Shown in pieces: positions 10,708 to 62,420 of a stretch of 64,000 nt of DNA. The position numbers and the translations under genes are program-made. Within the stretch, counting starts at the first letter, position 1. The number at the start of each line of letters is the position of its first letter. The notes beneath the pieces were generated by a model. It saw nothing but the letters and a program-made list of their open reading frames with translations. It ran no database searches and was not told the DNA's origin. Source of the stretch: an uncultured virus (IMG/VR IMGVR_UViG_3300031111_000236) (Duplodnaviria; Heunggongvirae; Uroviricota; Caudoviricetes); IMG/VR virus record IMGVR_UViG_3300031111_000236. One strand, given 5' to 3'.

Positions 10708-10791
10708 TGTGGCCTTGGATATTGTCTTATAAGACTTTCGCCACACTTTTATATATATTAAGGATGATGATTATTCGTTAAGGTGAGTAGT

Positions 10792-31993: not shown

Positions 31994-32089
31994 TTGGGTT
32001 CACCAGTCTTTGGATACCGTATATAAGCGTTTCCCATAACTTATATATCGCCCGATGTGATGTATTGAATCATAGTCGAGGTGTCAGTA

Positions 32090-49148: not shown

Positions 49149-50564
49149 ATGGTCACGAAAAAAGCAGAAGCATGGTTTGAAGTGGACACGAAAGGACTGC
49201 GAGCGATACAGGCGGGTAAGCCCCTGTTCTACATAGTTAGGGAACTTATTCAGAACGCCTTCGATGAAGACGTTACTGAGGTAATCCTGACTATAATGCA
49301 CGCCAAGGACAGGACGGTAATCTCGTGCGAGGACAACTCGCCCATCGGGTTCAGGGACCTGCGGGACGCATACACGATGTACAGGAACTGCTACAAGCGT
49401 CCCGACCCGACCAAGAGGGGACGGTTCGACGTTGGGGAGAAGCAAGCTATCTCCCTGGCGACGTGGGCTCAGATAGAGACCACAGTGGGGACTGTCACTT
49501 TCGACAACGAGGGAAGGCACGTGTCCGACGAGAAGAGAAAGGCTGGAAGTATGGTCACTCTTCACGTGGACATGACCAGGGCCGAGTACGAGGCGACTCT
49601 CGACTTCGTGAAGACCATTATAGTGCCTGACGGTATCAAGATGGTTCTGAACGGTGTCGCACTGCCCCACAAGGAGGCGAGAACCGAGTTCGAGACGATA
49701 CTCACAACTGAACTCCTCAAGGGCGATAGGCTGGTCAAGTCGAAGAGAAAGACCAAGGTCGTGGTCTATGAGGACGACGAGACTTGGCTCTACGAGATGG
49801 GCATCCCTGTCTGTGAGATAGAGTGTGCCTACTCTCTCGACGTGGACCAGCGTATCCCTCTTGGAGTGGACAGGGACAAAGTGTCGGGAGCCTACCTCCA
49901 GGACCTCTACGCAGAGGTTCTAAACCACACGTTCGATGATATCGACGAGGACACTGTGGGTGAGAGGTGGGTCCGAGAGGGCATGAGTGATGAGAGGGTC
50001 TCGGCAGAGGCTGTCGATAAGGTCATGACTACCCGATACGGCGAGAAGCGGTGCACCTACACGCCTGGAGACCCGCAAGCGAACGACAGGGCCATCATCG
50101 AGGGTTACACCCTTGTAAGGGGCGGCGAGCTAAGCAAGGATGAGTTCGATAACATCAAGAAGCACAACAAGGTGAGGTCGTCTCACGACCTTTTCGGACT
50201 TACACCAGGGAACGCCAAGGACGTGAAGCCGAACAAGAGCATGAGGACCGTGGAGGCTATTGCCAAGAAAATAGCCTGGGAGACGGAGCGCATCAGGATA
50301 GGTGTCAGGTTCGTCAACCTCCCGAAGGGTCACCCCGCATGGTTCGGTGGTAAAACCTTGACATTCAATGTCCAGGTACTCGGTAGGGGCTTCTTCACGA
50401 AGCCTGTGTGCGTCGATGTCATCGACCTCATCATCCACGAAGTGGCACACTACTACGGGATGCACACCGAGAGGGCGTATCTCGATGCCATCACTCGTAT
50501 CGGGGCCAAGCTCGCTCTGAAGGTTCGCAAGGACCCCAAGTTCTTCGATGTCGAGGTCCAGTAG
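49149..50564 (+). CDS. GHKL (HATPase) ATPase with C-terminal HEXXH zincin-like domain
   Basis: RELIQNAFD (N box), EDNS, GRFDVGEK; IIHEVAH. Confidence 0.75.
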   Translation: MVTKKAEAWFEVDTKGLRAIQAGKPLFYIVRELIQNAFDEDVTEVILTIMHAKDRTVISCEDNSPIGFRDLRDAYTMYRNCYKRPDPTKRGRFDVGEKQAISLATWAQIETTVGTVTFDNEGRHVSDEKRKAGSMVTLHVDMTRAEYEATLDFVKTIIVPDGIKMVLNGVALPHKEARTEFETILTTELLKGDRLVKSKRKTKVVVYEDDETWLYEMGIPVCEIECAYSLDVDQRIPLGVDRDKVSGAYLQDLYAEVLNHTFDDIDEDTVGERWVREGMSDERVSAEAVDKVMTTRYGEKRCTYTPGDPQANDRAIIEGYTLVRGGELSKDEFDNIKKHNKVRSSHDLFGLTPGNAKDVKPNKSMRTVEAIAKKIAWETERIRIGVRFVNLPKGHPAWFGGKTLTFNVQVLGRGFFTKPVCVDVIDLIIHEVAHYYGMHTERAYLDAITRIGAKLALKVRKDPKFFDVEVQ

Positions 50565-50576
50565 GACCTCGTTTTA

Positions 50577-50598
50577 TTTTTTTTTTTTTTTTTTTTTT
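50577..50598 (+). terminator. T22 tract, probable archaeal oligo-U terminator ahead of tRNA cluster 1
   Basis: 22 consecutive T after the GHKL stop; exact length could be a homopolymer error. Confidence 0.5.
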
Positions 50599-50640
50599 AT
50601 CTCGAAACCTTTATTAGGGACCCCACCAATCTCCCTGGAG

Positions 50641-50706
50641 ATGAACAGAGCAACTCTCTTAGCATCCAGTTCGGGACTATCATCGTTGTCCCTTCTTAGT
50701 CTGTAG
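50641..50706 (+). promoter_or_regulatory. Leader ORF MNRATLLASSSGLSSLSLLSL upstream of Leu/Ser tRNA cluster
   Basis: 14 of 20 non-start codons are Leu/Ser; all six Leu codons used; TTTATTA box about 30 nt upstream. Confidence 0.8.
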
Positions 50707-50805
50707 AAGGACTGGCTGGAGAGAGTTGGAGTATCATCGTGTGCTTTTCCCTGATGCGTCTTCCAAGAGGAGTCTCGCTGTTCTGCGGCTCTCTCCGTCG
50801 AAGAT

Positions 50806-50891
50806 GCACGGGTGGCTGAGTCAGGCTAAAGCGTTCGCCTTGAGAGCGTTTGACCCTCTTGGGTTTGCAGGTTCGAATCCTGTCCCGTGCG
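50806..50891 (+). tRNA. tRNA-Ser(TGA)
   Basis: GCACGGG/CCCGTGC acceptor, long variable arm, G73; outer anticodon stem mismatched. Confidence 0.8.
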
Positions 50892-50920
50892 CCTTTCCTT
50901 CTTACATACTATCATAGAGC

Positions 50921-51008
50921 GCAGGGGTGGTCGAGAGGTCGAAGACGGGGGATTCAAAATCCTCTACCATAGGTCCCGTCCCAGGTTCGAGTCCTGGTCC
51001 CTGCACCA
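50921..51008 (+). tRNA. tRNA-Leu(CAA)
   Basis: GGGGA-TTCAAAA-TCCTC; long variable region; encoded CCA. Confidence 0.9.
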
Positions 51009-51009
51009 C

Positions 51010-51092
51010 GGCAGAGTGTCCGAGCGGCGAAGGAGGGCGGCTTAAAACCGCCTACATAGGCCACGTCAGGGGTTCGAGTCCCCTCTCTGCCT
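51010..51092 (+). tRNA. tRNA-Leu(TAA)
   Basis: GGCGG-CTTAAAA-CCGCC; long variable region. Confidence 0.85.
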
Positions 51093-51103
51093 TCACAAGC
51101 AAC

Positions 51104-51190
51104 GGGGGAGTAGCCAAGTGGTCGAAGGCGGTGCGCTCAGAACGCACTACATAGGCAACGTCACAGGTTCAAATCCTGTCTCCCCTACCA
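51104..51190 (+). tRNA. tRNA-Leu(CAG)
   Basis: GTGCG-CTCAGAA-CGCAC; encoded CCA. Confidence 0.9.
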
Positions 51191-51196
51191 TTTCAT

Positions 51197-51285
51197 GGAG
51201 AGGTAGCCGAGCCTGGTCGAAGGCGGCAGGTCGAGGACCTGCTACATAGGCAACATCGGGGGTTCAAATCCCCCCCTCTCTACCA
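51197..51285 (+). tRNA. tRNA-Leu(GAG), C33
   Basis: GCAGG-TCGAGGA-CCTGC; encoded CCA. Confidence 0.85.
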
Positions 51286-51288
51286 TTT

Positions 51289-51370
51289 GCCAGGATGACC
51301 GAGCGGTAAGGTGGCGGTTTGCTAAGCCGTAGGGCCAGTGGCCCCGCAGGTTCAAATCCTGCTCCTGGCG
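51289..51370 (+). tRNA. tRNA-Ser(GCT)
   Basis: GCGGT-TTGCTAA-GCCGT; variable arm GGGCC/GGCCC; G73. Confidence 0.9.
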
Positions 51371-51510
51371 TTATCTTTTTATATTTCGTACTCCATCGCC
51401 TATCATGGTCAAAAGTATCTATCATTACAAGTCGTCCCGTGGTTGTAGTACTCGGTTCTAACGAGTACGGGCGGCTCAATTATGCCGCCACAACCAGAGG
51501 TGACAAGCGG

Positions 51511-51741
51511 ATGACGATAGACTACGACGAGATAGATTTTGATTGCCAGGGCAAGAACAGGAACTTCTACAGGTTTGACCCGAGACCTCGCAAGATGATA
51601 CGAAGGAAGAACCATCATCTAAACGACCCAGAGTACAACTACTGGAGAGGGTACTCTACTGCCAAGAACAAGAACCCGAGGTCGAACCATTGGAAGCTGA
51701 AGAACGCCGTCAGGAGGATGAGAAAGGCGAAGGGGCGGTAG
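51511..51741 (+). CDS. Small basic protein
   Basis: 76 aa, R/K/N-rich; GAGGTGA SD; T tract after stop. Confidence 0.6.
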   Translation: MTIDYDEIDFDCQGKNRNFYRFDPRPRKMIRRKNHHLNDPEYNYWRGYSTAKNKNPRSNHWKLKNAVRRMRKAKGR

Positions 51742-51903
51742 TTTTTTATACAATGTTAGACAATATAATCACATCACGCTTTCCTCCCCCATCCATACCA
51801 TACCAAGAGGCTGGAGCCGTCTTTTTTACTCTGGGCGGCTCCAGTCCAACCTTGTTTTCGTTGGTCCGAAACCTTTTTATATTTCAGGCTTTTTTGATTA
51901 TGT

Positions 51904-53355
51904 ATGAGCTACCGATATGAGACCAGAGTTGGGGTAGTCCAGAGCGATGTGACTACACATTTCCTACTCTCTCGTATGTGCCTTGGTGCTACCCGAGTGT
52001 TCAACTCTGCCTTATGGTACTCAAGACAGCAGTGGGAACAGGTGGGTAAGATTCCGACAGGCTACGACCTTGAGAAGGTGGTGAAAGACCTTTACTGGCA
52101 CAAGCAGATACCTGCCTCTGTATCTTGCTACACGGCGCAGGAGGTGGGTCGCTCTTACAAATCGTGGTTCGCACTCAAGAAGAAAGACCCGAAGGCAATG
52201 CCACCCATGTTCAGGAGGAAGGACTGCCTGTCGCCAATGACATACAGGCCAGGTACGTACAGTATCACAAGTGTGGACCCTCTGCACTCGAAAATAGACC
52301 TTGCACTTGGTCAAAAGTTTAAGTCTGACATCGGTTACCCGTACAAGAGATTGAGTGCGGATATAAGGTGGAACTCTCCATTACCAGAGGGGGACTACAC
52401 AATCGCCCTCTTGGAGGTTGTTCCGTCCGATAGGGATGTCTCACAGAATGACCACTTTGAAATTCATATTAAGGTTAAGTTAGAGGAGCGATGGCGTGAG
52501 GAGGGTCAGGTTATGTTCATAGACCTTGGTGTTGTCAATCCCATTGTCTCGATGACAGAGGCAGGGCGTGTAGACATTTTCAAGGGCGGCTCTATTTTGA
52601 GCAATATTAGATATTGGAACAGGGTGTTATCGCACTTGTCCGAGCGTGTTATGAAAGAGTCTAACAAAAAATACTCAAAGAAGATTAAGTGGGCCTACAA
52701 AAAGAGAAACGCTCAGATTAACCAGAAACTACATTCATTAGTAAATACTTTTGTTGAAGTATGCAAAGACGAAAACGTTAAGGAGGTGGTAGTTGGAGAC
52801 TTCAAAGGTATGAAGAAACAAGCAAGTGAGACGTGGAGACGTAACCCAAGCGAAAAAGACAAGTCCAGAATGAAGACAGAAGATAGTCCTGGCAGTAGTA
52901 AGGAGATGCAGAAGGTTATGCAATTTCCAGTACAGCGGATGGTCTCAATTCTGGAATACAAACTGGCAAGGGAAGGTATTCGATTAGTAACACAGGACGA
53001 GAGCGGTACGTCTACAGGCCGTTGCTTCGTCTGTGGTCATCGGTACACTACTGATAAGGCACGTGTGAAGCGAGGTCTTTTCAAGTGCGAGCACTGTAGG
53101 AACCTGGTCAATGCCGACATTAATGGTGTTGGCAATCAGCGTGCTCGTTACCTCGGTCTCGAAAGTACTAATGGCGTGCTTGATGAGGGTCTCTCAGTAT
53201 GGGAGTCGAACGTATGGCGTTGGTGTGATGAGAACAGATGGAAACTTGCTCACGTTGCGAGAGGCCATGTGACATTCAAAACCCCTGTAGGCTCTCGACA
53301 TATAAACTTTCCTAATAACCAGCAAGGTATCTCTGTCAAGGGTAACAACCCTTGA
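51904..53355 (+). CDS. tnpB: TnpB-family RNA-guided endonuclease (IS200/IS605-related), no adjacent transposase
   Basis: RVFNSAL helix, RuvC-I FIDLG, RuvC-II VVGDF, Zn finger CFVC...CEHC, RuvC-III NADING. Confidence 0.85.
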   Translation: MSYRYETRVGVVQSDVTTHFLLSRMCLGATRVFNSALWYSRQQWEQVGKIPTGYDLEKVVKDLYWHKQIPASVSCYTAQEVGRSYKSWFALKKKDPKAMPPMFRRKDCLSPMTYRPGTYSITSVDPLHSKIDLALGQKFKSDIGYPYKRLSADIRWNSPLPEGDYTIALLEVVPSDRDVSQNDHFEIHIKVKLEERWREEGQVMFIDLGVVNPIVSMTEAGRVDIFKGGSILSNIRYWNRVLSHLSERVMKESNKKYSKKIKWAYKKRNAQINQKLHSLVNTFVEVCKDENVKEVVVGDFKGMKKQASETWRRNPSEKDKSRMKTEDSPGSSKEMQKVMQFPVQRMVSILEYKLAREGIRLVTQDESGTSTGRCFVCGHRYTTDKARVKRGLFKCEHCRNLVNADINGVGNQRARYLGLESTNGVLDEGLSVWESNVWRWCDENRWKLAHVARGHVTFKTPVGSRHINFPNNQQGISVKGNNP

Positions 53356-53608
53356 GGAGTAGTAGCGGCACTACACCGCTCGTGGAGCGTTATGCGCTGG
53401 CCACAAATCTCAGCTTAATAAGCCCTCGCAATATACGTGAGTTGTGACGGAGGATGTAGGCAGTGGACCCAAGTAGAGTATCCTGTTGACGGGCGGACTC
53501 GCAATACACGTAGTTGTGGCGGAGGATGTAGGGATTCTCGGGTTGAAGGGCAAGGACCGACCCGCCGTTGGGAAAAATGGTATATACTTCTCAGTTCTAT
53601 GTACTCTC

Positions 53609-53944
53609 ATGCTCCCTATTGGACACTTCGCTCTTGGGTACTGCATCGTCATGGCTGTGCTCCTCTTGACACGGACCTATCGCTTCGTTCTTCGTGACGG
53701 GGCCTTAGCCGCTCTTGGAGGGCTTCTCGCCATGCTACCCGACGCTCCCTACGTCTTCTTGGGTGAGCACGCCTCGTGGCACGACAGCCCCATTATGAAC
53801 ATTTTCTTTTTTCATCAGTGGTTCGACGTGCTCTTGAGAGATGACTATCTCGTGTTCCCCGCTATCCTGATAGCTATCGCAGTCCTCTTGACAGGGGTGC
53901 TCTGGATGGTTGATAAGGACCACAGTAAGGTCATCGAGAAGTGA
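53609..53944 (+). CDS. Small membrane-bound metal-dependent hydrolase-like protein
   Basis: MLPIGH...MLPD...FFFH in TM helices; ATG 53609 downstream of TATATA. Confidence 0.55.
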   Translation: MLPIGHFALGYCIVMAVLLLTRTYRFVLRDGALAALGGLLAMLPDAPYVFLGEHASWHDSPIMNIFFFHQWFDVLLRDDYLVFPAILIAIAVLLTGVLWMVDKDHSKVIEK

Positions 53945-53993
53945 ACACGTAAACTTTTTATAGTACCGTGCCGATAGTCCTGTGGTTACTAAC

Positions 53994-54071
53994 ATGAACG
54001 TAATCCCAACCTTCACGGAAAGAGTCGATAGGTGGCAGGAGCGACCCTGCCGCCATCCGCAAGTACTCTAA
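53994..54071 (+). promoter_or_regulatory. Leader ORF MNVIPTFTERVDRWQERPCRHPQVL upstream of tRNA cluster 2
   Basis: 16 consecutive codons cover exactly the nine amino acids of cluster 2; TTTTTATA at 53955. Confidence 0.8.
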
Positions 54072-54089
54072 TTTTGAGAAGGAAGAGTT

Positions 54090-54164
54090 GGGAACATAGT
54101 GTAGCCTGGTTTATCACGGTGGTCTCCAAAACCACTTACATCGGTTCGAATCCGATTGTTCCCA
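54090..54164 (+). tRNA. tRNA-Trp(CCA), intron-less
   Basis: GTGGT-CTCCAAA-ACCAC. Confidence 0.9.
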
Positions 54165-54207
54165 CTCTATTTTCTCGAAATTTTTGTACCACGAGAAGCA
54201 ACAGAGT

Positions 54208-54281
54208 GGGCCTGTAGGGTAGCTTGGATATCCTGTTGGACTCCTAATCCATTGACAGCGGTTCAAATCCGCTCAGGTCCG
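54208..54281 (+). tRNA. tRNA-Arg(CCT)
   Basis: TTGGA-CTCCTAA-TCCAT. Confidence 0.9.
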
Positions 54282-54294
54282 TTACCAAGAGCAA

Positions 54295-54368
54295 GCTCCC
54301 GTAGTGTAATGGGAAAATCATCCTTGCCTTTCAAGCAAGGGAATCGAGTTCGAATCTCGGCGGGAGTA
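54295..54368 (+). tRNA. tRNA-Glu(TTC)
   Basis: CTTGC-CTTTCAA-GCAAG. Confidence 0.9.
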
Positions 54369-54369
54369 T

Positions 54370-54447
54370 GGGCGTGTATCCGAGCCTGGACAAGGTGCGG
54401 GTCTTCTAAACCCGTTTGCAGGGGTTCAAATCCCCTCACGCCCACCA
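54370..54447 (+). tRNA. tRNA-Arg(TCT)
   Basis: CGGGT-CTTCTAA-ACCCG; encoded CCA. Confidence 0.9.
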
Positions 54448-54458
54448 TCAGCAAGCAT

Positions 54459-54532
54459 GGGCGCATAGTCTAACCTGGATAGGACACCTGGCTACGGACC
54501 AGGCAATGGGAGTTCGAATCTCTCTGCGCTCA
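54459..54532 (+). tRNA. tRNA-Arg(ACG)
   Basis: CCTGG-CTACGGA-CCAGG. Confidence 0.9.
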
Positions 54533-54549
54533 CTAAACATAAGCAAAAT

Positions 54550-54787
54550 GTGGCGGTAGCCGTCGAACGTACCTCTGGTTCCTGACGAGGAACCAAGTCG
54601 GGCACAACAAGTAGGCGGAGCGATTAACCTCAAGTCCGAAGTATCTGGGCTGAAACAATGTGGTTGAAGTCCACCCCATGTATCTCGGTGGGTAGGTCAT
54701 GTGCATGACGATGTGCAGTGACCGATACAATCCAGGTATGAGGTCTCCGAGGGAGAAATAAAGTGGGTTAAATTCCCACCCGCCGCA
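54550..54787 (+). ncRNA. About 240-nt RNA with tRNA-like acceptor stem and T arm
   Basis: GTGGCGG/CCGCCGC-A acceptor; T arm GTGGG-TTAAATT-CCCAC; internal hairpins; sits in a tRNA slot of the array. Confidence 0.6.
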
Positions 54788-54791
54788 CTAT

Positions 54792-54866
54792 GGGGACGTG
54801 GTGTAGCTTGGACCAGCACCCCTGGTTTGGGACCAGGAAACCACAGTTCGAATCTGTGCGTCCCCA
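54792..54866 (+). tRNA. tRNA-Pro(TGG)
   Basis: CCTGG-TTTGGGA-CCAGG; G1:C72. Confidence 0.9.
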
Positions 54867-54890
54867 TTACCCCTCTTGGGGGTGAGTGAG

Positions 54891-55193
54891 ATGAGCAAGC
54901 AAAAACAAACGTCAGACGCAAACAAGGCAATCAAGAACACAGCGAAGGTTCACCTTGACATCAACCACGGTAGGCTTGATGCTGAAGTGGTAATCAACGG
55001 TGTTGGCGTTAAGTTCCTCCGTGAGATGGACGCAGACGCAGAGGTGAAGATGAACAAGGTGGTCGAGAGCTTGATGACTCTCGTCCCTACCCCGTCGTAC
55101 CCGACACCTGATGAGCCTGAAGTTTGGCGTGACCAAGAATCTACTAATGATACCGTGACCCCCACGGTATCTCCTATGGCGGGAGTGGTGTAG
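54891..55193 (+). CDS. Small hypothetical protein within tRNA array
   Basis: GGTGA SD; 3' end overlaps tRNA-His. Confidence 0.5.
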   Translation: MSKQKQTSDANKAIKNTAKVHLDINHGRLDAEVVINGVGVKFLREMDADAEVKMNKVVESLMTLVPTPSYPTPDEPEVWRDQESTNDTVTPTVSPMAGVV

Positions 55194-55250
55194 TCGGTAG
55201 CATCGGAGGTTGTGGGCCTCCAGGGTTGGGTTCGAGTCCCGACTCCCGCC
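55178..55250 (+). tRNA. tRNA-His(GTG) with encoded G-1
   Basis: GGAGG-TTGTGGG-CCTCC; G-1:C73. Confidence 0.9.
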
Positions 55251-55264
55251 CTCTTGAAACCACT

Positions 55265-55349
55265 GATAGGGTGGCCGAGCCAGGTAAGGCGATAGGTTGC
55301 AGACCTGTTGTCTTAGACATCGGGAGTTCAAATCTCCCCCCTATCTCCA
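55265..55349 (+). tRNA. tRNA-Cys(GCA) with long variable arm
   Basis: ATAGG-TTGCAGA-CCTGT; TGTC-TTA-GACA arm; U73 and CCA. Confidence 0.85.
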
Positions 55350-55476
55350 CTCGCACTCGCAACAGACACATGATTTCCAGTGGAAGTCGAGACCACACAC
55401 TGTTGCCACTGGAAACATAGCCAGTCAATTTACAGTGGCAGTGGTGTCACCACACTGTTTCCACTGTAGCAAGCAT

Positions 55477-55552
55477 GGGGCAGTAGTCAAGCCAGGTTAT
55501 TGACAACACCCTTACAAGGTGTAGGTCGGCGGTTCGAATCCGTCCTGCCCTA
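55477..55552 (+). tRNA. tRNA-Val(TAC)
   Basis: ACACC-CTTACAA-GGTGT. Confidence 0.9.
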
Positions 55553-55567
55553 TTTCCCATACGCATT

Positions 55568-55640
55568 GGCCCCTTGGTGTAAGTGGACAACATATCGGGC
55601 TTTGGACCCGATGCTCTTGGTTCGAATCCAAGAGGGGCTA
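55568..55640 (+). tRNA. tRNA-Gln(TTG)
   Basis: TCGGG-CTTTGGA-CCCGA. Confidence 0.9.
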
Positions 55641-55642
55641 CT

Positions 55643-55831
55643 ATGAAGTGCCAGTTCGTTGGCGGTGTCCACGTGGACAAACATCTGCCCAACCCCGAGG
55701 ACTATGAGTGCCATGAGGAGGCTACCCATACCCTTGTGGGTAATCACAAGCAGTGGCACTTCTGTCAGAAGCACTTTGAAGAGGCCAGTGACTTCAAGGA
55801 CTCTGCAAAGCACGAAACAGCAAGCATATAG
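55643..55831 (+). CDS. Small Cys/His protein within tRNA array
   Basis: 62 aa MKCQF...ECHEEAT...FCQKH filling the spacer between the two Gln tRNAs. Confidence 0.5.
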   Translation: MKCQFVGGVHVDKHLPNPEDYECHEEATHTLVGNHKQWHFCQKHFEEASDFKDSAKHETASI

Positions 55832-55901
55832 CCCCTTGGTGTAATCAGCAACATACCAGGCTCTGGACCTGGAGAAGGCGGGGCAGAACCGTCAGGGGCT
55901 G
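55830..55901 (+). tRNA. tRNA-Gln(CTG), atypical D and T loops
   Basis: A1:U72; CCAGG-CTCTGGA-CCTGG; T loop GGCAGAA. Confidence 0.75.
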
Positions 55902-55922
55902 TTAGACAATAAGCAACAAGAC

Positions 55923-55995
55923 GCTCCCGTAGTGTAGTGGTCAACCATTTGAGGTTCTCACCCTCAAGCCTGGGGTTCGAATCCCCACGGGAGTA
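55923..55995 (+). tRNA. tRNA-Glu(CTC)
   Basis: TGAGG-TTCTCAC-CCTCA. Confidence 0.9.
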
Positions 55996-56002
55996 CTCAT
56001 AC

Positions 56003-56074
56003 GCCTCCGTAGTGTAGCGGTCATCATCTTGGTTTGTCAGGCCAGGGACTTGGGTTCAAATCCCAACGGGGGCG
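56003..56074 (+). tRNA. tRNA-Asp(GTC)
   Basis: TTGGT-TTGTCAG-GCCAG; G73; followed by T tract. Confidence 0.9.
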
Positions 56075-56118
56075 TTCTTTTTCTCAAAGTTTTTATACCT
56101 CAAGAGCTTACTCATTAT

Positions 56119-56296
56119 TGGCGAAAAAGTGGTCCCTACCGTGGATAGATAGCCTGTCAATCAGCGGTGGTGGAACATCGCAATCCCAAAGCCATCTGGG
56201 ATAGACCTCAGCGGCGGAGCGTGGTCACATCAGATACACCCGTGACCACAGAGTCCGTCGATGGGACCGCCGAGCGGTGATACGCCGCTCTCGCCA
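56119..56296 (+). ncRNA. Stand-alone structured RNA, about 180 nt
   Basis: Own TTTTATA box (56091); TGGCGA/TCGCCA closing stem; GGTCCC/GGGACC, GTGGTCAC/GTGACCAC and GAGCGG/CCGCTC helices; T tract after. Confidence 0.65.
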
Positions 56297-56368
56297 CTTT
56301 TAATATTATAAGTTTTTGGGTACACCTTATATACTTCTGGTATGATTGTCTTATATCAAGGTGGCTTT

Positions 56369-57412
56369 ATGACCAAGAAAAAGGGCTTTCGAGGCAATCC
56401 CCAGACACACAGGCTCAATGCACACGGAATACATAACGAGAGGGCTTTTGCCTCCTCTTCACCAAGCATGATAAACGTGCAAGCTCGTGCTGTCACACCC
56501 ATACAAAAGAGCCACAGTTACTCAGACAGGTCAGAACCCTCTGGTAAGGTCAACAACGGTGGCTACGTGGACGAGTACCTTGTGTTGGTCGAGAAGAAGA
56601 CGGTGGAAGAGGCTACAATCAAGCCTGGTGACGAGATAGAGATGACCTTCGCAGGGGCTCCCAATGATTTCCCGAGGCCCTGGACTCTCGTTAGTGCCAG
56701 GGACGAGTACTCTACGGTATCCTACAGCAACACCCCAACCGTAGTAGTGCGTGCGGCCAATGGCAAGGAGATGACTCTCAAGAACGCACAGGTGTATAGC
56801 CCACACAAGCCCGAGAAGTCGTTCGGGTATTGGGTCAAGCCCAAGGGCCTCCCCCCGAGATACGAAAAGTACGTGACCATCCAGGACGAGGTAACTCTCC
56901 TCGAACTCATAAAGAAAGAGGACCAAGGCGGTATCAACGAGTACATAGAGAAGATGTACGAGAGGTCTGGAATAGACAAGAAGAAATACCCGCTCAACTT
57001 CTTCAGGGTGGATGTCATTAACGGTCTCTGGTACAAGGGACTCGTGAAGCAAAAGAACAGTCGCATGGCTATCTCCAAGCATGGTGAGAAGGTTCTCAAG
57101 AGTGGGGCTTTCGGCTCTGCTCAGATGCGTGATTGGGAGAAGAACAAGGTTGTTAAGATGGACGATGAGGACATCGAGATATTCGATGCCAAAACCCAGA
57201 AAATGATACGCAAGTACATGAAGAAGGGTAACCTCTACTATATGTTCGGCTTCCTGGTCTTCGAAGATGACAAGTCTCTACGTATCGTCGGAGAGAACGA
57301 CTCTTATGATGATTACACTATCAGGATGAGAACCAAGGACTTTGATAAGGTGTACGATAGACTGGAGAACGCAGACGGTGGCGTTTACGCCACAACCGAA
57401 GGCTGGAAGTGA
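56369..57412 (+). CDS. Multi-domain hypothetical protein with RHG-type leader
   Basis: GFRGNPQTHRLNAHGIHNERAFA. Confidence 0.75.
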   Translation: MTKKKGFRGNPQTHRLNAHGIHNERAFASSSPSMINVQARAVTPIQKSHSYSDRSEPSGKVNNGGYVDEYLVLVEKKTVEEATIKPGDEIEMTFAGAPNDFPRPWTLVSARDEYSTVSYSNTPTVVVRAANGKEMTLKNAQVYSPHKPEKSFGYWVKPKGLPPRYEKYVTIQDEVTLLELIKKEDQGGINEYIEKMYERSGIDKKKYPLNFFRVDVINGLWYKGLVKQKNSRMAISKHGEKVLKSGAFGSAQMRDWEKNKVVKMDDEDIEIFDAKTQKMIRKYMKKGNLYYMFGFLVFEDDKSLRIVGENDSYDDYTIRMRTKDFDKVYDRLENADGGVYATTEGWK

Positions 57413-57416
57413 TGAT

Positions 57417-57680
57417 ATGGCGGACTTCTTTCAAACAGTGGGACTTGGAATTGCTGTAGGTATCTCCGTAGTACTCGGCTTGATACTCGGGTGGGCCATG
57501 TACTTTAACGCTAAGAAGTGCGGCAGGAGCACGGTCTGGGGCATAGCCTACATCATATTCTCGCCAGTGATGACACTCTTGAGCTTCCTGGGGTTCCCAG
57601 GAGCATGGGCTTTCGCCTACCTTCCCTGGCTCATCATAGTCGGATACCTCTTGACAGGGGCCAACAAGTGCTCGACGTGA
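57417..57680 (+). CDS. Small membrane protein
   Basis: Three hydrophobic segments. Confidence 0.6.
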   Translation: MADFFQTVGLGIAVGISVVLGLILGWAMYFNAKKCGRSTVWGIAYIIFSPVMTLLSFLGFPGAWAFAYLPWLIIVGYLLTGANKCST

Positions 57681-57684
57681 GACG

Positions 57685-58071
57685 ATGTACAAGGCCGCCC
57701 TCCTTGGTCTAATTACTCTCCTGGTACTCGCACCATTGTGTATACTTGTAATTGAAGAGTTCAGGGACCAGCCAGACATAGAGGAGACGACTACACTCGA
57801 TTGGTGGTCTGTAGTTCACTTCGGCTCAGGCGTGGTGCTCTTTCTGGTCCTATCAAGGATTGGATTTTCGCCGAGAGCGAATATCATAGTCACTACTGTG
57901 CTTGGCTGTCTGTTTGAGGTGGTCGAGCACCTCCTCATTGAACCTCTTGCCATGTTTGGTGGTAGAGAGCTGGTTTTCAATATAGGGGCAGATATGCTCC
58001 TCGTCTATTTGGGTGCTATCACGGCGATGTGGATATGGTGTCGCAAGACAGAGTGCCCTCTTGATGTTTAG
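57685..58071 (+). CDS. Membrane protein, possible intramembrane metal-dependent hydrolase
   Basis: DWWSVVHF..G, FEVVE, E...N..AD in TM helices. Confidence 0.55.
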   Translation: MYKAALLGLITLLVLAPLCILVIEEFRDQPDIEETTTLDWWSVVHFGSGVVLFLVLSRIGFSPRANIIVTTVLGCLFEVVEHLLIEPLAMFGGRELVFNIGADMLLVYLGAITAMWIWCRKTECPLDV

Positions 58072-59045
58072 TGAGAGTACTCTGAATAGGTTGAGTAGGC
58101 AAGTGCACCCTGTATCAAGAGGACTATCTCATCGACGACCCTCTTGTACTTCTTGATATCAATGCAGTGGATACCGCCAACGTTGACGTGGCCGCCTCCA
58201 CCGTATCTCTTCATGATGTCACCGATGTTTGGGACTGTGCGCTTCTGGTCCTTCTTGAATATGTTCATGCCAACGTTCATCCTCACGAACTCGGGAGAGT
58301 CGCCGTAGAAGCTCACGCTGATGAGATACTCCACCTCGGGGTACTCAGCGTATATCTCGTACAGGCTATCGGAGAACCCTGGTATGTCGCATACGTCAAG
58401 GACGGCTACACCATGCTCCCTGATATCGAGCCTCCTCTTGGTGATGTCCTTGAACGACTTTTGCTTGTCCCTCTTGTCGAAGAACCGCCTCTTGGCCCAA
58501 TCGCTGTTAGCTATATCGCTAAAGCTCTTGCCTCTCATAAGCTCTGATATGACCCAACGCCTGTAGTCGTCGTCCTCTCTTCTATTTCCGCTCCTGAGCG
58601 TGATGGAGATGATACCAGCGGTGCTCGGGTTGAGTACCTCCTCTGGTGTCAGGTCCCCGCTGTCTATCTTGTTGGTGTACTTCAGGATAGACTGGAACCT
58701 CCTGTTGCACGGTAACTTGGAGGCGTACATCCTGTATATGACGGCGGCACAGCTCGGCTCAAGGAACCAGTGCCAGACACCGATACTGTCGTCGTTAGAG
58801 TCGATGTTAGGCTTGTTCGAAATGTGGTGGTCGGCCCAAAGCCCTGCTACTTTCGGTTGCGGGAGGTCGCAGACGATATCCCTCTTGGTCGTGTAGACCT
58901 GCCCTGCTTTCATATCGTTCGGGGTAGTGAAAATAATGTTCTCCACAGGTATCTTGAATATGGTAGCCATGAAGAACCCACTTATCACCCCGTCGAGGTC
59001 GTCGTGTGTAATTATTCTGTCGTATTTGCACATAGGCATCACCAC
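58068..59045 (-). CDS. DHH/DHHA1 phosphoesterase (NrnA/nanoRNase-like)
   Basis: THDDLDG, CDLP, ADHH, GGGGHVNVGG. Confidence 0.85.
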   Translation of the reverse strand: MVMPMCKYDRIITHDDLDGVISGFFMATIFKIPVENIIFTTPNDMKAGQVYTTKRDIVCDLPQPKVAGLWADHHISNKPNIDSNDDSIGVWHWFLEPSCAAVIYRMYASKLPCNRRFQSILKYTNKIDSGDLTPEEVLNPSTAGIISITLRSGNRREDDDYRRWVISELMRGKSFSDIANSDWAKRRFFDKRDKQKSFKDITKRRLDIREHGVAVLDVCDIPGFSDSLYEIYAEYPEVEYLISVSFYGDSPEFVRMNVGMNIFKKDQKRTVPNIGDIMKRYGGGGHVNVGGIHCIDIKKYKRVVDEIVLLIQGALAYSTYSEYSH

Positions 59046-59169
59046 TGATATTGGTGTCAGGAGTTATAATGGGTCGGCGGGAAGCTCGTGTTTTGAAGAC
59101 AATAGAAGTGCACCGCCCTTCCCAAAACCTTATTTACTTCGACCCTCTCTTGATGCTTGATGATAGTCG

Positions 59170-59682
59170 ATGACGTGGAAATGGGAAAAGCTGGAGGCAC
59201 AACTCCTGGCAGTCCGAGCCATAAAGGACTACGCAGTTGTGTCTGGGGGCCTCGCATGGCATTTAATGTCGCCGCCCCACGAAGAGAACAAGAAGGTCCA
59301 CGACCACTCTGATGTGGACTTATTCATAATCCCAGAACACTTCGCCACCGCTATTGAAATTCTGAAGAGCATGGACTTCCACCGATGGTGGACCAGGTAC
59401 GATAACATCACTCCCAACTTCTACAGGTATGGTAAGACCACTACCTGGACCAACGGCAAGAGGGTGAAAACCGAGCTTGACCTATTCGTCCGTAAGATGC
59501 CATACCGCATGGTAGGTGAGTTCAAGGTCATAACACCAGAGGCTCTATTACCTCTGTATCAGGAGTGCCACTCAAGTTCGAGATGTGTAGCCGTACAGTC
59601 GGCAATACAGCTCATGAAGAACGGGATAGACCCTCTTGGGCGAATTGAATTAGTGGAGGGGATACCATGCCGACACTCTTGA
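59170..59682 (+). CDS. Pol-beta superfamily nucleotidyltransferase
   Basis: VSGGLAW...HSDVDLF...ELDLF. Confidence 0.7.
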   Translation: MTWKWEKLEAQLLAVRAIKDYAVVSGGLAWHLMSPPHEENKKVHDHSDVDLFIIPEHFATAIEILKSMDFHRWWTRYDNITPNFYRYGKTTTWTNGKRVKTELDLFVRKMPYRMVGEFKVITPEALLPLYQECHSSSRCVAVQSAIQLMKNGIDPLGRIELVEGIPCRHS

Positions 59683-60635: not shown

Positions 60636-60689
60636 GCATCGTCCCACAACCCTTAAATATCATCGAGACATAATCAAGAGGGAGCAGAG

Positions 60690-60773
60690 ATGACTCACTT
60701 TACCTATATCGGGACCGCTATAACGGGCGGAACATACGCCAAAACCGCAATTAAGAGCGGTAATGGGCAGTAG
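60690..60773 (+). promoter_or_regulatory. Leader ORF MTHFTYIGTAITGGTYAKTAIKSGNGQ upstream of tRNA cluster 3
   Basis: 23 of 26 non-start codons are amino acids of cluster 3; CTTAAATA at 60652; GGGAG SD. Confidence 0.8.
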
Positions 60774-60884
60774 AATCCCGATGAAGGTGAAGTTCTTGTA
60801 GAAATTTTTTCTGCGTCGCTGAAATTTTTCAAAGAGGGCCTCGCCCTCTCGGTGTTCTTCTTCCATTAGTCGCTCGTAGAGATT

Positions 60885-60959
60885 GGACCCGTGGCCAAGT
60901 TAGGGACGGCAGTGGGCTTTTAACCCACCAAATCCAGGGTTCGAATCCCTGCGGGTCCG
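60885..60959 (+). tRNA. tRNA-Lys(TTT)
   Basis: GTGGG-CTTTTAA-CCCAC. Confidence 0.9.
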
Positions 60960-60970
60960 CTCTATTTTGT

Positions 60971-61044
60971 GGGTCCATAGCTCAGTTAGGTTGAGCAGGG
61001 GACTCTTAATCCCAAGGTCGGGGGTTCAAATCCCTCTGGACCCA
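60971..61044 (+). tRNA. tRNA-Lys(CTT)
   Basis: GGGGA-CTCTTAA-TCCCA. Confidence 0.9.
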
Positions 61045-61138
61045 TTGACCCGAGGTTTACGTCGCAGGGCTGTATCGCAGGTTGCGACGAGGATGAGGTG
61101 GCGACATCCTTCACTCACCTGCGTCGATACGCAACCAT

Positions 61139-61211
61139 GTCACTGTGGCCAAACGGTGAAGGCACTCGGCTGTTAACCGAGAGATTGCAGGTTCGAATCC
61201 TGTCGGTGACG
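61139..61211 (+). tRNA. tRNA-Asn(GTT)
   Basis: CTCGG-CTGTTAA-CCGAG. Confidence 0.9.
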
Positions 61212-61226
61212 TTCAATCATACGCAA

Positions 61227-61333
61227 GCACGGGTGGCCAAGTTGGTAAGGCACTCATCAGGGTGGTGCAAGTCCACGTACAAAATAATCAGCACTGTTGA
61301 GAAGGACCGTGGGTTCAAGTCCCACCCCGTGCG
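61227..61333 (+). ncRNA. tRNA-like RNA with the anticodon loop replaced by a larger structured insert
   Basis: Perfect acceptor, D and T arms; about 39 nt where a 7-nt anticodon loop should be. Confidence 0.7.
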
Positions 61334-61350
61334 TTCAATCGCAACACAAT

Positions 61351-61429
61351 GGGAGTATAGCATAGCCTGGGATTGCGCCAGAGTGAAGTCTTGGTCATTG
61401 CGGGAGTTCAAATCTCTCTGCTCCCACCA
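61351..61429 (+). tRNA. tRNA-Phe(GAA), atypical anticodon arm
   Basis: CCAGA-GTGAAGT-CTTGG; encoded CCA. Confidence 0.75.
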
Positions 61430-61433
61430 TCAT

Positions 61434-61507
61434 GGGCTCGTAAGTCAGTTAGGGAGACTACCTCTCCTGCAAAGAGGAAGCCGAGGGTTCAATTCCCTCC
61501 GAGTCCA
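61434..61507 (+). tRNA. tRNA-Ala(TGC), C33
   Basis: G3:U70; CCTCT-CCTGCAA-AGAGG. Confidence 0.9.
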
Positions 61508-61513
61508 CTATAT

Positions 61514-61587
61514 GCCACCGTAGCTAAACTGGATAAGGCAGTCGCCTTGTAAGCGACAGATTGGGGGTTCGAGTCCCTTCGGTGGCT
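61514..61587 (+). tRNA. tRNA-Thr(TGT)
   Basis: GTCGC-CTTGTAA-GCGAC; U73. Confidence 0.9.
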
Positions 61588-61601
61588 CTTACAAACGCAA
61601 C

Positions 61602-61672
61602 CTGCTCATGGTGTAGTGGTAGCACGGGTGGCTGTAGACCTCCAAGCGGGAGTTCGACTCTCTCTGGGCAGA
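61602..61672 (+). tRNA. tRNA-Tyr(GTA), archaeal/eukaryal type
   Basis: C1:G72, short variable loop, GGTGG-CTGTAGA-CCTCC. Confidence 0.9.
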
Positions 61673-61677
61673 TTCAC

Positions 61678-61751
61678 GGGCTGTTAGCCAAGCTGGTAAG
61701 GCGTTCGGCTCATAACCGAAAGACTCGGGGGTTCGAGTCCCTCACGGCCCA
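61678..61751 (+). tRNA. tRNA(CAT), probably Ile2 rather than Met
   Basis: TTCGG-CTCATAA-CCGAA; GGGC acceptor start like tRNA-Ile(GAT); ATA codon present in the cluster leader. Confidence 0.8.
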
Positions 61752-61764
61752 TTAGATAAGCAAT

Positions 61765-61837
61765 GCTGGCGTGGCTCAGGCAGTAGAGCGTCGCTCTGGT
61801 AAGGCGAAGGTCGTGGGTGCAAATCCCATCGTCAGCT
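61765..61837 (+). tRNA. tRNA-Thr(GGT), atypical T loop
   Basis: TCGCT-CTGGTAA-GGCGA; T loop TGCAAAT. Confidence 0.85.
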
Positions 61838-61840
61838 TTC

Positions 61841-61867
61841 CAAGTGATATCAAGTGATATCAAGTGA
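61841..61867 (+). repeat. Tandem 10-bp repeat CAAGTGATAT x2.7
   Basis: Direct reading of the spacer. Confidence 0.8.
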
Positions 61868-61873
61868 ATCCAA

Positions 61874-61948
61874 GGGCGTATGGCGCAGTGGTAGCGCACT
61901 CGCCTGATAAGCGAGAGGCCGTGAGTTCAAGCCTCACTACGCCCACCA
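61874..61948 (+). tRNA. tRNA-Ile(GAT)
   Basis: CTCGC-CTGATAA-GCGAG; encoded CCA. Confidence 0.9.
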
Positions 61949-61949
61949 T

Positions 61950-62024
61950 GCGAGAGTGGTGTTCAACGGTTCAGCATATCTGGCTTCCAACCAGACGGTC
62001 AGGGTTCGACTCCCTGCTCTCGCA
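61950..62024 (+). tRNA. tRNA-Gly(TCC)
   Basis: TCTGG-CTTCCAA-CCAGA; A73. Confidence 0.9.
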
Positions 62025-62034
62025 CTACAGGAGC

Positions 62035-62223
62035 GTGGTACAATCGGTCTACTGCCCAAGATGCCAGAACAAGATGCGCCGAGTGTTCGACTCGACACAG
62101 ATATGCGACCACTGCCGAACGAGGTGGTCCATAGACGAGCTGAAGATGCCTACCTTGAAGTCCTTTCGTGACAGAATAGACTTCAGGGACATAGAGGAGG
62201 AGTGGGTGTGGAATCCAACATAA
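62035..62223 (+). CDS. Small Zn-ribbon protein within tRNA array
   Basis: CPRC...CDHC; AGGAG before GTG; fills the spacer between the two Gly tRNAs. Confidence 0.55.
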   Translation: MVQSVYCPRCQNKMRRVFDSTQICDHCRTRWSIDELKMPTLKSFRDRIDFRDIEEEWVWNPT

Positions 62224-62295
62224 GCGGTGTTGGTGTTAGTGGTAGCATACCTGGTCGCCATCCAGGAGGGGTGGGTTCGAATCCTGCACACCGCA
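62224..62295 (+). tRNA. tRNA-Gly(GCC), C33
   Basis: CCTGG-TCGCCAT-CCAGG; A73. Confidence 0.85.
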
Positions 62296-62420
62296 CTGGC
62301 CCCTGGCCTATACAATAAGGAGGTGGTACGTCGAGTACGAAAAGAAGTGACACCAGGGGGACGGGGTTCGTCCTCGTCCCCACCCATTTCTTTTTATATC
62401 TCGTGCGTGTAGGATTGCTC

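Follow-up and report, generated by a model that had tools for sequence, protein, structure and literature searches.

Why large viruses carry near-complete sets of transfer RNA (tRNA) genes, and how they time the use of these sets, is an open question. It is raised here by a stretch of 64,000 nucleotides, hereafter the window, from an uncultured virus assigned to the Caudoviricetes (IMG/VR record IMGVR_UViG_3300031111_000236), in which 30 tRNAs called by ARAGORN, one further tRNA matched by Rfam only (55830-55901) and an insert-bearing tRNA-like gene (61227-61333) are arranged in three blocks, termed U1, U2 and U3. The window belongs to a contig of 184,795 bp, for which the one DNA run listed with sequence is a marine sediment metagenome. 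Each block is headed by a short open reading frame (ORF), and these three ORFs (A, B and G) are very probably functional, codon-matched leaders tied to their own tRNA blocks. For leader A, which precedes the Ser and Leu tRNAs of U1, the reading favoured here, with a probability of roughly 0.6 and resting in part on modelled RNA folds, is that the ORF has a sensing role coupled to a relay between two helices, H1 and H2. A stalled ribosome would favour H2, free the 5' strand of tRNA-Ser and so switch the unit on.

ORF A runs from the ATG at 50641 to the TAG ending at 50706 and lies, with the remainder of the U1 leader, between the stop codon of the gene at 49149-50564 and tRNA-Ser(tga) at 50806. 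A preliminary description of the locus, made from the letters alone, had quoted the codon string exactly and had correctly pointed out that it includes all six Leu codons (seven Leu codons use 6/6) and four kinds of Ser codon (seven Ser codons use 4/6), ahead of four Leu and two Ser tRNAs, which are found at 50806-51371. The start that it gave for the feature, 50609, corresponds to the TATA-like motif upstream and not to the ORF itself. U1 is the sole Ser/Leu tRNA cluster of the window, and ORF A is the single ATG ORF of at least 12 codons within 50566-50805. Among the 834 ATG-to-stop ORFs with 12-60 codons that the two strands of the window contain, its Leu+Ser share of 0.70 ranks first, the runner-up reaching 0.62. 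The signal is frame specific, the other two sense frames containing 3/20 and 6/20 such codons and the antisense frames 4, 4 and 4. When the 60 coding bases were shuffled with their dinucleotide content preserved, in-frame counts of 14 or more arose in only 7 of 200,000 trials (P = 3.5e-5).

The terminator of the preceding gene, at 50552-50598, includes a T22 run (50577-50598) that is the only T run of eight or more in the window, and it insulates U1. Repeat searching found no second copy of the U1 leader in the window, and the segment 50718-50796 (GGAGAGAG ... CTCTCTCC) was considered as a decayed tRNA and rejected, as neither ARAGORN nor Rfam called it and no fitting T arm was seen by eye.

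The same arrangement is found at the other two blocks, where ORF B and ORF G are each the sole ATG ORF of at least 12 codons in their own upstream regions. In ORF B, 18 of 24 residues are drawn from W, R, E, P, H, C, V, Q and D, the amino acids of the U2 tRNAs (rank 4/834), and in ORF G 23 of 26 are drawn from K, N, F, A, T, Y, M, I and G, those of the U3 tRNAs (rank 1/834). Own-block cognate counts are 14/20, 18/24 and 23/26 for the three leaders, compared with 1-5 for the sets of the other blocks, for which each leader ranks 753-834 of 834; the three sets divide all 20 amino acids without overlap. With standard wobble, every one of the 31 tRNAs has a cognate codon in its own leader (6/6 in U1, 13/13 in U2 and 12/12 in U3), where the Met tRNA is covered by the start codon only and the 13th U2 tRNA is the Rfam-only match. 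Uniform random codons would give such coverage with probabilities of 0.0065 (U1), 0.00011 (U2) and 0.00092 (U3). Together the 70 leader codons use 51 distinct codons, compared with a uniform expectation of 41.8 (standard deviation 2.5), and this figure was reached in 12 of 50,000 uniform simulations and in none of 50,000 that followed the codon usage of the window's genes. Counted from the codon strings, the codon kinds of Leu (6/6), Thr (4/4), Gly (4/4) and Ile (3/3) are fully used. Combining the ranks of all three leaders by Fisher's method yields 1.4e-6, and 8.9e-6 with a narrow U2 set; the limits of U2 were set once the data had been seen, so as to take in every tRNA as far as the T run and TATA-like motif that come next, at 56076-56097, and it would constitute a single unit on that definition.

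How else could such a match arise? One answer is that ORF A is a functionless chance product of a CT-rich, hairpin-forming 5' leader. The region is indeed pyrimidine-rich, and low-complexity CTCTCT/AGAGAG helices readily yield Leu and Ser codons. However, the shuffles and the first rank of ORF A, the presence of two more matched leaders, the Fisher values and control loci at background level (see below) all argue in the opposite direction, leaving chance a practically negligible explanation. A second answer is that the ORFs are translated without sensing tRNA supply, the first ribosome shielding the RNA from termination factors or nucleases or aiding its folding, and the codons mirroring the viral tRNA set. 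All leaders begin right at, or close to, the 5' end predicted for their transcripts, and hairpins covering or adjoining the start region would restrict translation to the first, co-transcriptional round, as this answer would have it. Nevertheless, general adaptation does not predict leaders that match only their own block, and the synonymous codons are spread rather than optimised, which leaves this second answer highly unlikely.

A third possibility is that the leader RNA is untranslated and binds tRNAs directly through its codon triplets, as a sponge or sensor akin to a T-box. T-box riboswitches bind tRNA directly and are untranslated; like the system proposed here, they respond to the state of a particular tRNA and control genes for components of translation. 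The leaders do contain triplets complementary to each anticodon downstream. Against this, the match is confined to the frame that is set by the ATG and closed by the stop, most of the codons lie inside H1, and no Rfam family, the T-box included, matched 50566-50805 at E values up to 1. Direct binding is therefore scarcely credible.

If the ORFs are read by ribosomes, the question becomes how reading could affect the tRNAs behind them. The preliminary description had proposed that leader A contains two mutually exclusive helices, the segment 50718-50728 pairing either with the ORF or with a site just before tRNA-Ser, and both pairings were recovered. In H1, 50651-50659 pairs with 50720-50728 through nine Watson-Crick pairs, extended by seven pairs, one of them G-U, between 50666-50672 and 50709-50715. 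In H2, 50718-50728 pairs with 50786-50796; eight Watson-Crick pairs were checked and all 11 positions are paired in the computed duplex, which was read by eye from the segments as nine Watson-Crick and two G-U pairs. The leader was then folded together with tRNA-Ser (50641-50893), a ribosome being represented by a 30-nt mask with its A site on a given codon. In the unmasked RNA, the computed pair probabilities are 0.99 for H1, 0.00 for H2, 0.97 for an anti-acceptor helix that joins the leader to the start of the tRNA and 0.02 for the tRNA acceptor stem. Masks with the A site on codons 2-13 invert this pattern, with H1 at 0-0.04, H2 at 0.95-1.00, the anti-acceptor helix at 0-0.04 and the acceptor stem at 0.95-1.00. 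The finding of a single fold regardless of masking, which had been named in advance as fatal to the idea, was thus not obtained in the calculation, where the predicted fold does change.

Several further calculations bear on this switch. When the RNA ends at 50799, before the tRNA has been made, H2 is predicted at 0.90-0.99 under ORF masks versus 0.14 unmasked. The computed duplex energies (H1, -23.6; H2, -17.1; anti-acceptor, -17.2; acceptor stem, -12.6; local rival of H2, -10.1 kcal/mol) fall in the order that the relay requires. Capture of the acceptor strand by the leader, at 0.97 versus a mean of 0.09, was reached by none of 150 dinucleotide-shuffled leaders. Of 200 dinucleotide shuffles of leader A, 198 fold less well than the native sequence (z = -2.69), and the plus strand of the leader is more stable than its minus strand by 9.7 kcal/mol, as expected if G-U pairs count. 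Within the calculation, the two-state geometry is real and is accompanied by a plausible output, release of the tRNA 5' acceptor strand, which was absent from the preliminary description.

In the favoured reading, ORF A would be a translated leader that reports ribosome speed on Leu and Ser codons and sets the output of the Ser/Leu tRNA operon. Transcription would start beside the ATG, as the TATA-like motif suggests, and the first ribosome would load co-transcriptionally. During fast decoding of Leu and Ser codons the ribosome would be gone early, allowing H1 (50651-50672/50709-50728) to form and to sequester 50718-50728. In this H1 state, 50750-50763 would pair with 50800-50812, a segment that includes the tRNA-Ser 5' acceptor strand and RNase P site, and as this capture would precede synthesis of the 3' strand of the tRNA, the first tRNA would remain misfolded or unprocessed (the off state). 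A ribosome lingering on the Leu and Ser codons would instead prevent H1, so that 50718-50728 would pair with 50786-50796 (H2), the anti-acceptor segment would be displaced and the tRNA would fold (the on state). The direction of control, in which slow decoding turns U1 on, would follow from this reasoning and from which segments are transcribed first. Taken alone, the folding or processing output is somewhat doubtful.

The distribution of the design beyond the window was addressed with an automated test, which takes tRNA runs with gaps of at most 150 nt, the 300 nt upstream and ATG ORFs of 6-45 codons, and corrects a binomial p for the number of ORFs. In the window (11 gaps) it returns U1 with p = 2.7e-5 and U3 with p = 5.7e-7. 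In 80 control IMG/VR loci around RNA-ligase homologues (193 tRNAs, 135 gaps), two gaps have p < 0.01 and none p < 0.001, compared with 0 for antisense ORFs and an average of 2.15 for swapped amino-acid sets. Since the control loci are at background level, with 2/135 gaps equalling the swapped-set figure, generality across viral tRNA clusters was rejected: the codon-matched leader is not a general property of such clusters, and the test does not create the signal alone.

A tblastn search of the phage collection with the protein encoded at 49149-50564 returned a single record, the 485-kb uncultured phage LR745208.1 (36% identity), the tRNA clusters of which are mostly grouped by amino acid. Here the automated test gives p < 0.01 in 5 of 19 gaps, and the nearest upstream ATG ORF is cognate-rich for six clusters, with ranks from 1/266 to at most 16/266, or at most 7/977. 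By reading, the five Leu codon types of the Leu leader match the five Leu anticodons one to one. Those leaders with p < 0.01 each lie behind a TTGACA/TATACT-type promoter, and all five occurrences of the strict pattern TTGAC-N-TA.A.. in 63 kb of LR745208.1 have an ATG ORF and then a tRNA cluster behind them, although the Ile/Phe case is not cognate-rich. Cognate enrichment was absent or weak at the Ser (two), Lys/Val/Arg, Met and Ile/Phe/Gln clusters of this phage. The ORF of the Glu leader is predicted to pair with the 5' part of its first tRNA at 0.99 (0/150 shuffles) and that of the Leu leader at 0.96 (4/150 shuffles). At least six clusters with cognate-rich leaders behind TTGACA-N17-TATACT-type promoters occur within 140001-203000 of LR745208.1, where the leader stop codon lies 6-50 nt before the first tRNA. 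A Met-Asn start (ATG AAC) is common to six LR745208.1 leader ORFs and two window leaders.

Two leaders were also found in a cultured archaeal virus, Halogranum tailed virus 1, with a variant of the test in which GTG starts are admitted and p is given per ORF, uncorrected for ORF number; both are unannotated in its record. The second of these is preceded by gaaagATTTATATAgg and has a T5 run at its stop codon. A TATA-like CTTAAATA follows this second leader, approximately 32 nt before tRNA-Gln, and the tRNAs may have their own promoter too. Searches of the phage collection for relatives of the leaders of LR745208.1 and Halogranum tailed virus 1 gave nothing beyond tRNA-only matches. No cognate-rich ORF was found at L072, the only one of 60 metagenome loci with many tRNAs, no clear leader at L140 (12 tRNAs) among 79 genome-contig loci, and no cognate-rich leaders on a related 53.6-kb contig with 26 tRNAs (G001:C4).

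In what kind of host would leader A operate? The genes of the window are nearly all on the plus strand and have few Pfam or PHROG matches; Pfam and PHROG searches of 25-29 large window ORFs found no capsid, portal or terminase. Motifs of the aaaCTTTTTATA type and variants occur approximately 29-44 nt before many gene starts, with aaaCTTTTTATA, TTTAAATA or CTTTATAT placed 29-33 nt before the ATG at 34399, 43705 and 51904, and in other genes GGTGA stands directly before the ATG. We take this pattern to be that of archaeal B recognition element (BRE)/TATA promoters with leaderless or GGTGA-led genes. A TATA-like motif is located 32-39 nt ahead of all three leaders, and the leader ORFs would therefore sit at the extreme 5' end of their transcripts. 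ORF A would be leaderless or nearly so, if its transcript starts where the TATA-like motif suggests. The tRNA-Tyr of the window is 71 nt long with a C1-G72 pair, as read from the sequence, compared with 85 nt in the bacterial-type phage LR745208.1; a short tRNA-Tyr with C1-G72 is of the archaeal/eukaryal type. The nearest relatives of the 49149-50564 protein (40-47% identity) lie on contigs of metagenome-assembled genomes labelled Pacearchaeota, WOR-3, uncultured archaeon, Patescibacteria, Methanomicrobia, Bathyarchaeia, Woesearchaeota and Nanohalarchaeota. On the basis of promoter motifs, tRNA-Tyr type and the labels of these relatives, the element is probably a large virus or mobile element of an archaeal host.

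A number of observations weigh against the relay proposed for leader A. In the unmasked RNA, the anti-acceptor fold is favoured over an acceptor-enforced fold by 2.9 kcal/mol only, in a model that takes no account of tertiary contacts in the tRNA. The arms of H2 interleave with those of the anti-acceptor helix and the program forbids pseudoknots, so that their exclusivity is partly assumed; they would probably not coexist. Masks at codons 15-22 let the outer H1 stem re-form around the mask, an outcome judged sterically unlikely. Three of the 14 Leu/Ser codons (TCC twice and CTA) have no cognate U1 tRNA by standard wobble. No Shine-Dalgarno sequence stands at usable spacing before ORF A, as GGAG abuts the ATG, and leaderless initiation is assumed. 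For U2, restriction to the adjacent Trp/Arg/Glu run lowers ORF B to rank 33/834, with an automated p of 0.1. Close relatives of the locus itself were not found: an exact 45-nt leader pattern had no match in IMG/VR; the proteins of 49149-50564, 56342-57412 and 62403-62969 had no confirmed match there; blastn of 49149-52000 against the phage collection found none; and no Ser/Leu tRNA cluster followed the homologue of the upstream gene (33-48% identity) at any of the 60 metagenome loci scanned of 80 fetched. The closest relative of the 49149-50564 protein obtained with flanks has 49% identity.

Nor is the computed output common to all leaders. What the three window leaders share is a 5'-terminal ORF matched in codons to its block, together with a large hairpin that has one arm (5') within this ORF and the other (3') starting at or just after the stop; z lies between -2.05 and -3.51 for seven of nine leaders folded. 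Masking ORF B, however, alters nothing downstream in the fold calculation. Capture of the acceptor strand is displayed by five of the nine leaders folded with their first tRNA (three from the window and six from LR745208.1), and three of these five beat their shuffles (U1 and the Glu and Leu leaders of LR745208.1), those of ProAla and TyrCysHis not doing so; the U2 and U3 leaders lack it. Finally, the anti-acceptor helix touches the first tRNA only, yet the leader samples the codons of all six.

This last discrepancy is where the main rival gains most. It retains the codon-matched sensor and replaces its output with premature termination, mediated by T tracts, terminator-like hairpins or an archaeal termination factor, the anti-acceptor helix being incidental. 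Termination would better explain the sampling of all six tRNAs, as control of the whole operon fits such a leader. Oligo-T is an archaeal termination signal, and U3 carries a terminator-like hairpin at 60833-60849 with T6 and T5 runs just upstream (approximately 60805-60830, by eye), which early-codon masks reduce from 0.94-0.96 to 0.03 once the RNA reaches 60865; ORF B ends in TAATTTT, and the T5 run of the second Halogranum tailed virus 1 leader is likewise positioned at the stop. However, no terminator-like site was found between 50707 and 50805, where only a T4 run (50746-50749) occurs. With the RNA ending at 60851, the decision point, the U3 hairpin stays at 0.75-0.98 under every mask, and U2 and most LR745208.1 leaders leave just 6-50 nt from the stop to the first tRNA. 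As the output of leader A, termination is considered unlikely, and the relay remains the preferred account of leader A.

Among known systems, bacterial leader-peptide attenuators have the same logic, and the relay is similar to attenuation of the ermC type. Bacterial leader-peptide transcription attenuators include trpL, hisL, leuL and pheL and the multivalent thrL and ilv leaders. In common with this class, leader A has a short ORF at the 5' end enriched in codons tied to the regulated product, the ORF overlaps the 5'-most of mutually exclusive helices, and one leader can sample more than a single amino acid, as the thr and ilv leaders do. In contrast, the regulated genes are here tRNAs, leader A has no GC-hairpin-plus-U terminator, the promoter is of archaeal type and the ORF apparently leaderless, the calculated effect is to free the 5' acceptor strand of a tRNA, and the codons are spread over nearly all synonyms rather than forming a run of one. 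The features of the class that leader A displays are thus a first short ORF with start and stop codons, cognate enrichment and, by computation, exclusive helices; it lacks an intrinsic terminator before the tRNAs, such as U3 has at 60833-60849. Leader A falls outside the classic attenuator class in two respects, the terminator and the type of gene under control. The pheM-pheST attenuator, with its leader peptide before the genes for Phe-tRNA synthetase and a classic terminator output, is similar in that a cognate-codon leader controls a component of the decoding machinery and not a biosynthetic enzyme; its product is a synthetase, here replaced by a tRNA set.

In the translational attenuation of ermC and cat, a drug-induced stall unmasks a ribosome-binding site. 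As in those systems, a ribosome held on the leader ORF would open a hairpin, the freed arm would re-pair and a masked site would be exposed, with no terminator needed, and unmasking of this type was computed in leader A, where 50800-50812 is freed as the anti-acceptor helix falls from 0.97 to 0-0.04. The difference is that what becomes exposed is the tRNA-Ser 5' acceptor strand with the RNase P site, not the ribosome-binding site of a protein gene, and that the stall would be slow decoding. In mycobacteria, leaderless polycysteine short ORFs are described as Cys-responsive attenuators (bioRxiv 10.1101/834739); as presented there, they too are leaderless short ORFs that come first on a polycistronic transcript and set downstream expression by codon content, but are bacterial, respond to one amino acid and have protein-coding targets. 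A full-text literature search found no paper on leader peptides controlling tRNA genes.

Table 1. Features of the three leader-tRNA units of the window and of leaders in other viruses. Window coordinates unless an accession is given; peptides are shown to the stop codon.
Feature	Position	Strand	Remarks
Terminator of upstream gene	50552..50598	+	Hairpin 50552-50571, then TTTTA + T22 run; terminator-like site
BRE/TATA-like motif TCTCGAAACCTTTATTAG	50600..50617	+	Starts ~32 nt before ORF A ATG; putative promoter
Leader ORF A, MNRATLLASSSGLSSLSLLSL-stop	50641..50706	+	14/20 codons Leu/Ser; 21 codons
H1 5' arm	50651..50672	+	Inside ORF A, codons 4-11; minimum free energy fold, pair probabilities, duplex -23.6 kcal/mol
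H1 3' arm	50709..50728	+	Begins 3 nt past stop; part 50718-50728 (GGAGAGAGTTG) doubles as H2 5' arm
Anti-acceptor segment CCTGATGCGTCTTC	50750..50763	+	13 bp with 50800-50812
H2 3' arm CGGCTCTCTCC	50786..50796	+	Resembles H1 5' arm
Anti-acceptor target	50800..50812	+	Last 6 leader nt + first 7 nt (5' acceptor strand) of tRNA-Ser(tga); spans expected RNase P cleavage site
U1 tRNAs	50806..51371	+	Ser(tga), Leu(caa), Leu(taa), Leu(cag), Leu(gag), Ser(gct)
Leader ORF B, MNVIPTFTERVDRWQERPCRHPQVL-stop	53994..54071	+	Heads U2; first tRNA starts 18 nt past stop
Hairpin of leader B	54010-54082	+	Covers 3' two thirds of ORF B, stop codon and T4 run; ends 7 nt before tRNA-Trp
U2 tRNAs	54090..56075	+	Trp, Arg x3, Glu x2, Pro, His, Cys, Val, Gln x2, Asp
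Leader ORF G, MTHFTYIGTAITGGTYAKTAIKSGNGQ-stop	60690..60773	+	Heads U3
Hairpin of leader G	60697-60793	+	5' arm in ORF G, 3' arm just past stop
Terminator-like GC hairpin + T-rich tail	60833..60849	+	Between ORF G and tRNA-Lys
U3 tRNAs	60885..62296	+	Lys x2, Asn, intron/insert-bearing tRNA-like gene, Phe, Ala, Thr x2, Tyr, Met, Ile, Gly x2
LR745208.1 leader ORF MNQHLHHHCY			Tyr/Cys/His cluster
LR745208.1 leader ORF MRFFTTTRTRTAGLTRKG			Thr x3 cluster
LR745208.1 leader ORF MNLSTHSTNTAPAATAACVVACVGPAAPPAA			Pro/Ala cluster
LR745208.1 leader ORF MNSYTTSERERESDSERT			Glu/Asp/Glu cluster
LR745208.1 leader ORF MYTKTTTHGRDGGTLARGCGRVQRRRRIRPTT			Arg x3 + Gly x2 cluster
LR745208.1 leader ORF MFDRATNSIPSLKLELLLSCAGVDLCTRA			Leu x5 cluster
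KC292026.1 (Halogranum tailed virus 1) leader MKSKTTTTGTRL-stop	49217-49179	-	Before Thr x3 + Lys; 7/11, p = 2.8e-5
KC292026.1 leader MTSRCSIQSSQISWSQISTF-stop	48753-48691	-	Before Gln, Trp, Ser, Ile, Ser, Gln, Ile; 14/19, p = 2.6e-6

The tRNA blocks contain further features of their own. The gene at 61227-61333 is recognized as tRNA-like only with introns allowed, when ARAGORN reports Asn(gtt) interrupted by a 35-nt intron; it is similar to tRNA-Ser(tga) at its 5' end and has a T-arm-like hairpin in its insert, so that it may be a rearranged or intron-bearing tRNA. The Rfam tRNA at 55830-55901 (41.5 bits), missed by ARAGORN, has by eye the anticodon CTG (Gln) and an aberrant T arm. An AAGCAA(G/C)-like motif, seen by eye in 51094-62000, lies 3-15 nt before many tRNA 5' ends (e.g. 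51095, 54283, 54450, 55467, 55818, 55908 and 61226) and may be a processing signal. Within U2, two non-coding stretches, 54534-54790 (257 nt) and 55350-55475 (126 nt), are rich in inverted repeats and have no Rfam match, the second carrying repeated CCACTG/CAGTGG words. The sequence TTTTCTCGAAATTTTTGTACC in 54166-54206, approximately 26-29 nt before tRNA-Arg(cct), resembles the start of the leader A promoter region and may be an internal promoter that places the transcript start at or near +1 of the tRNA. In addition, an ORF of approximately 95 codons at about 54890-55178 precedes tRNA-His, small Cys/His-rich ORFs lie between tRNAs at 55642-55829 (U2) and 62074-62223 (U3), and a short tandem repeat (caagtgatat x2 and a variant) occupies 61838-61873 between tRNA-Thr(ggt) and tRNA-Ile. 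A minus-strand ORF overlying ORF G (approximately 60640-60866), resembling a small membrane protein, was rejected as a candidate because its promoter would fall inside tRNA-Lys, where no TATA-like motif occurs.

Among the neighbouring genes, a TnpB-like gene with OrfB_IS605 and Cas12f1-like TNB domains (51904-53355) separates the first and second tRNA blocks and is followed at about 53420-53535 by two direct repeats of approximately 35 nt (…cgcaata[tc]acgt…ggaggatgtagg…; by eye), which could be a guide-RNA region. Directly upstream of U3, 59667-60635 encodes an HNH-like N-terminus fused to an RNA ligase (PF09414). This fusion has 1285 homologues, many on very long contigs, the nearest relatives of the window RNA ligase sharing 53-66% identity, and a role in tRNA repair is possible. 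Two MoxR-like AAA_5 ATPases (32081-33628 and 34399-35421) are followed by a 640-residue protein (35418-37340) with a weak, sub-threshold VWA match, and a second weak VWA match was obtained with a 1218-residue protein (10783-14439).

A broader reading has also been considered, in which archaeal and bacterial viruses place a ribosome-read 'codon panel' before each tRNA operon, acting by a kinetic race and not by termination, and turning tRNA maturation on when decoding is slow, for example when a host defence cuts or depletes those tRNAs. The three panels of the window would jointly sample all 20 amino acids and all 31 tRNAs, and a ribosome lingering on a panel would stop a leader segment from capturing the 5' acceptor strand of the first tRNA as it emerges. 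This reading is tentative and, as it stands, rather unlikely; were it true, it would represent translation-gated tRNA folding, a mode of gene control without precedent, and the first working attenuation-like device in an archaeal system. If the relay proposed for leader A is correct, these viruses would measure decoding capacity and replenish it on demand, and would also register host defences that target tRNAs. Ribosome-mediated attenuation would then be extended to tRNA genes as the regulated product, and to an archaeal-type transcription system, in which, to our knowledge, it has not yet been demonstrated, and a non-coding RNA would be regulated in a new way, through alternate covering and exposure of the 5' acceptor strand of a tRNA. 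The presence of this leader design in the cultured Halogranum tailed virus 1 makes the idea accessible to bench experiments.

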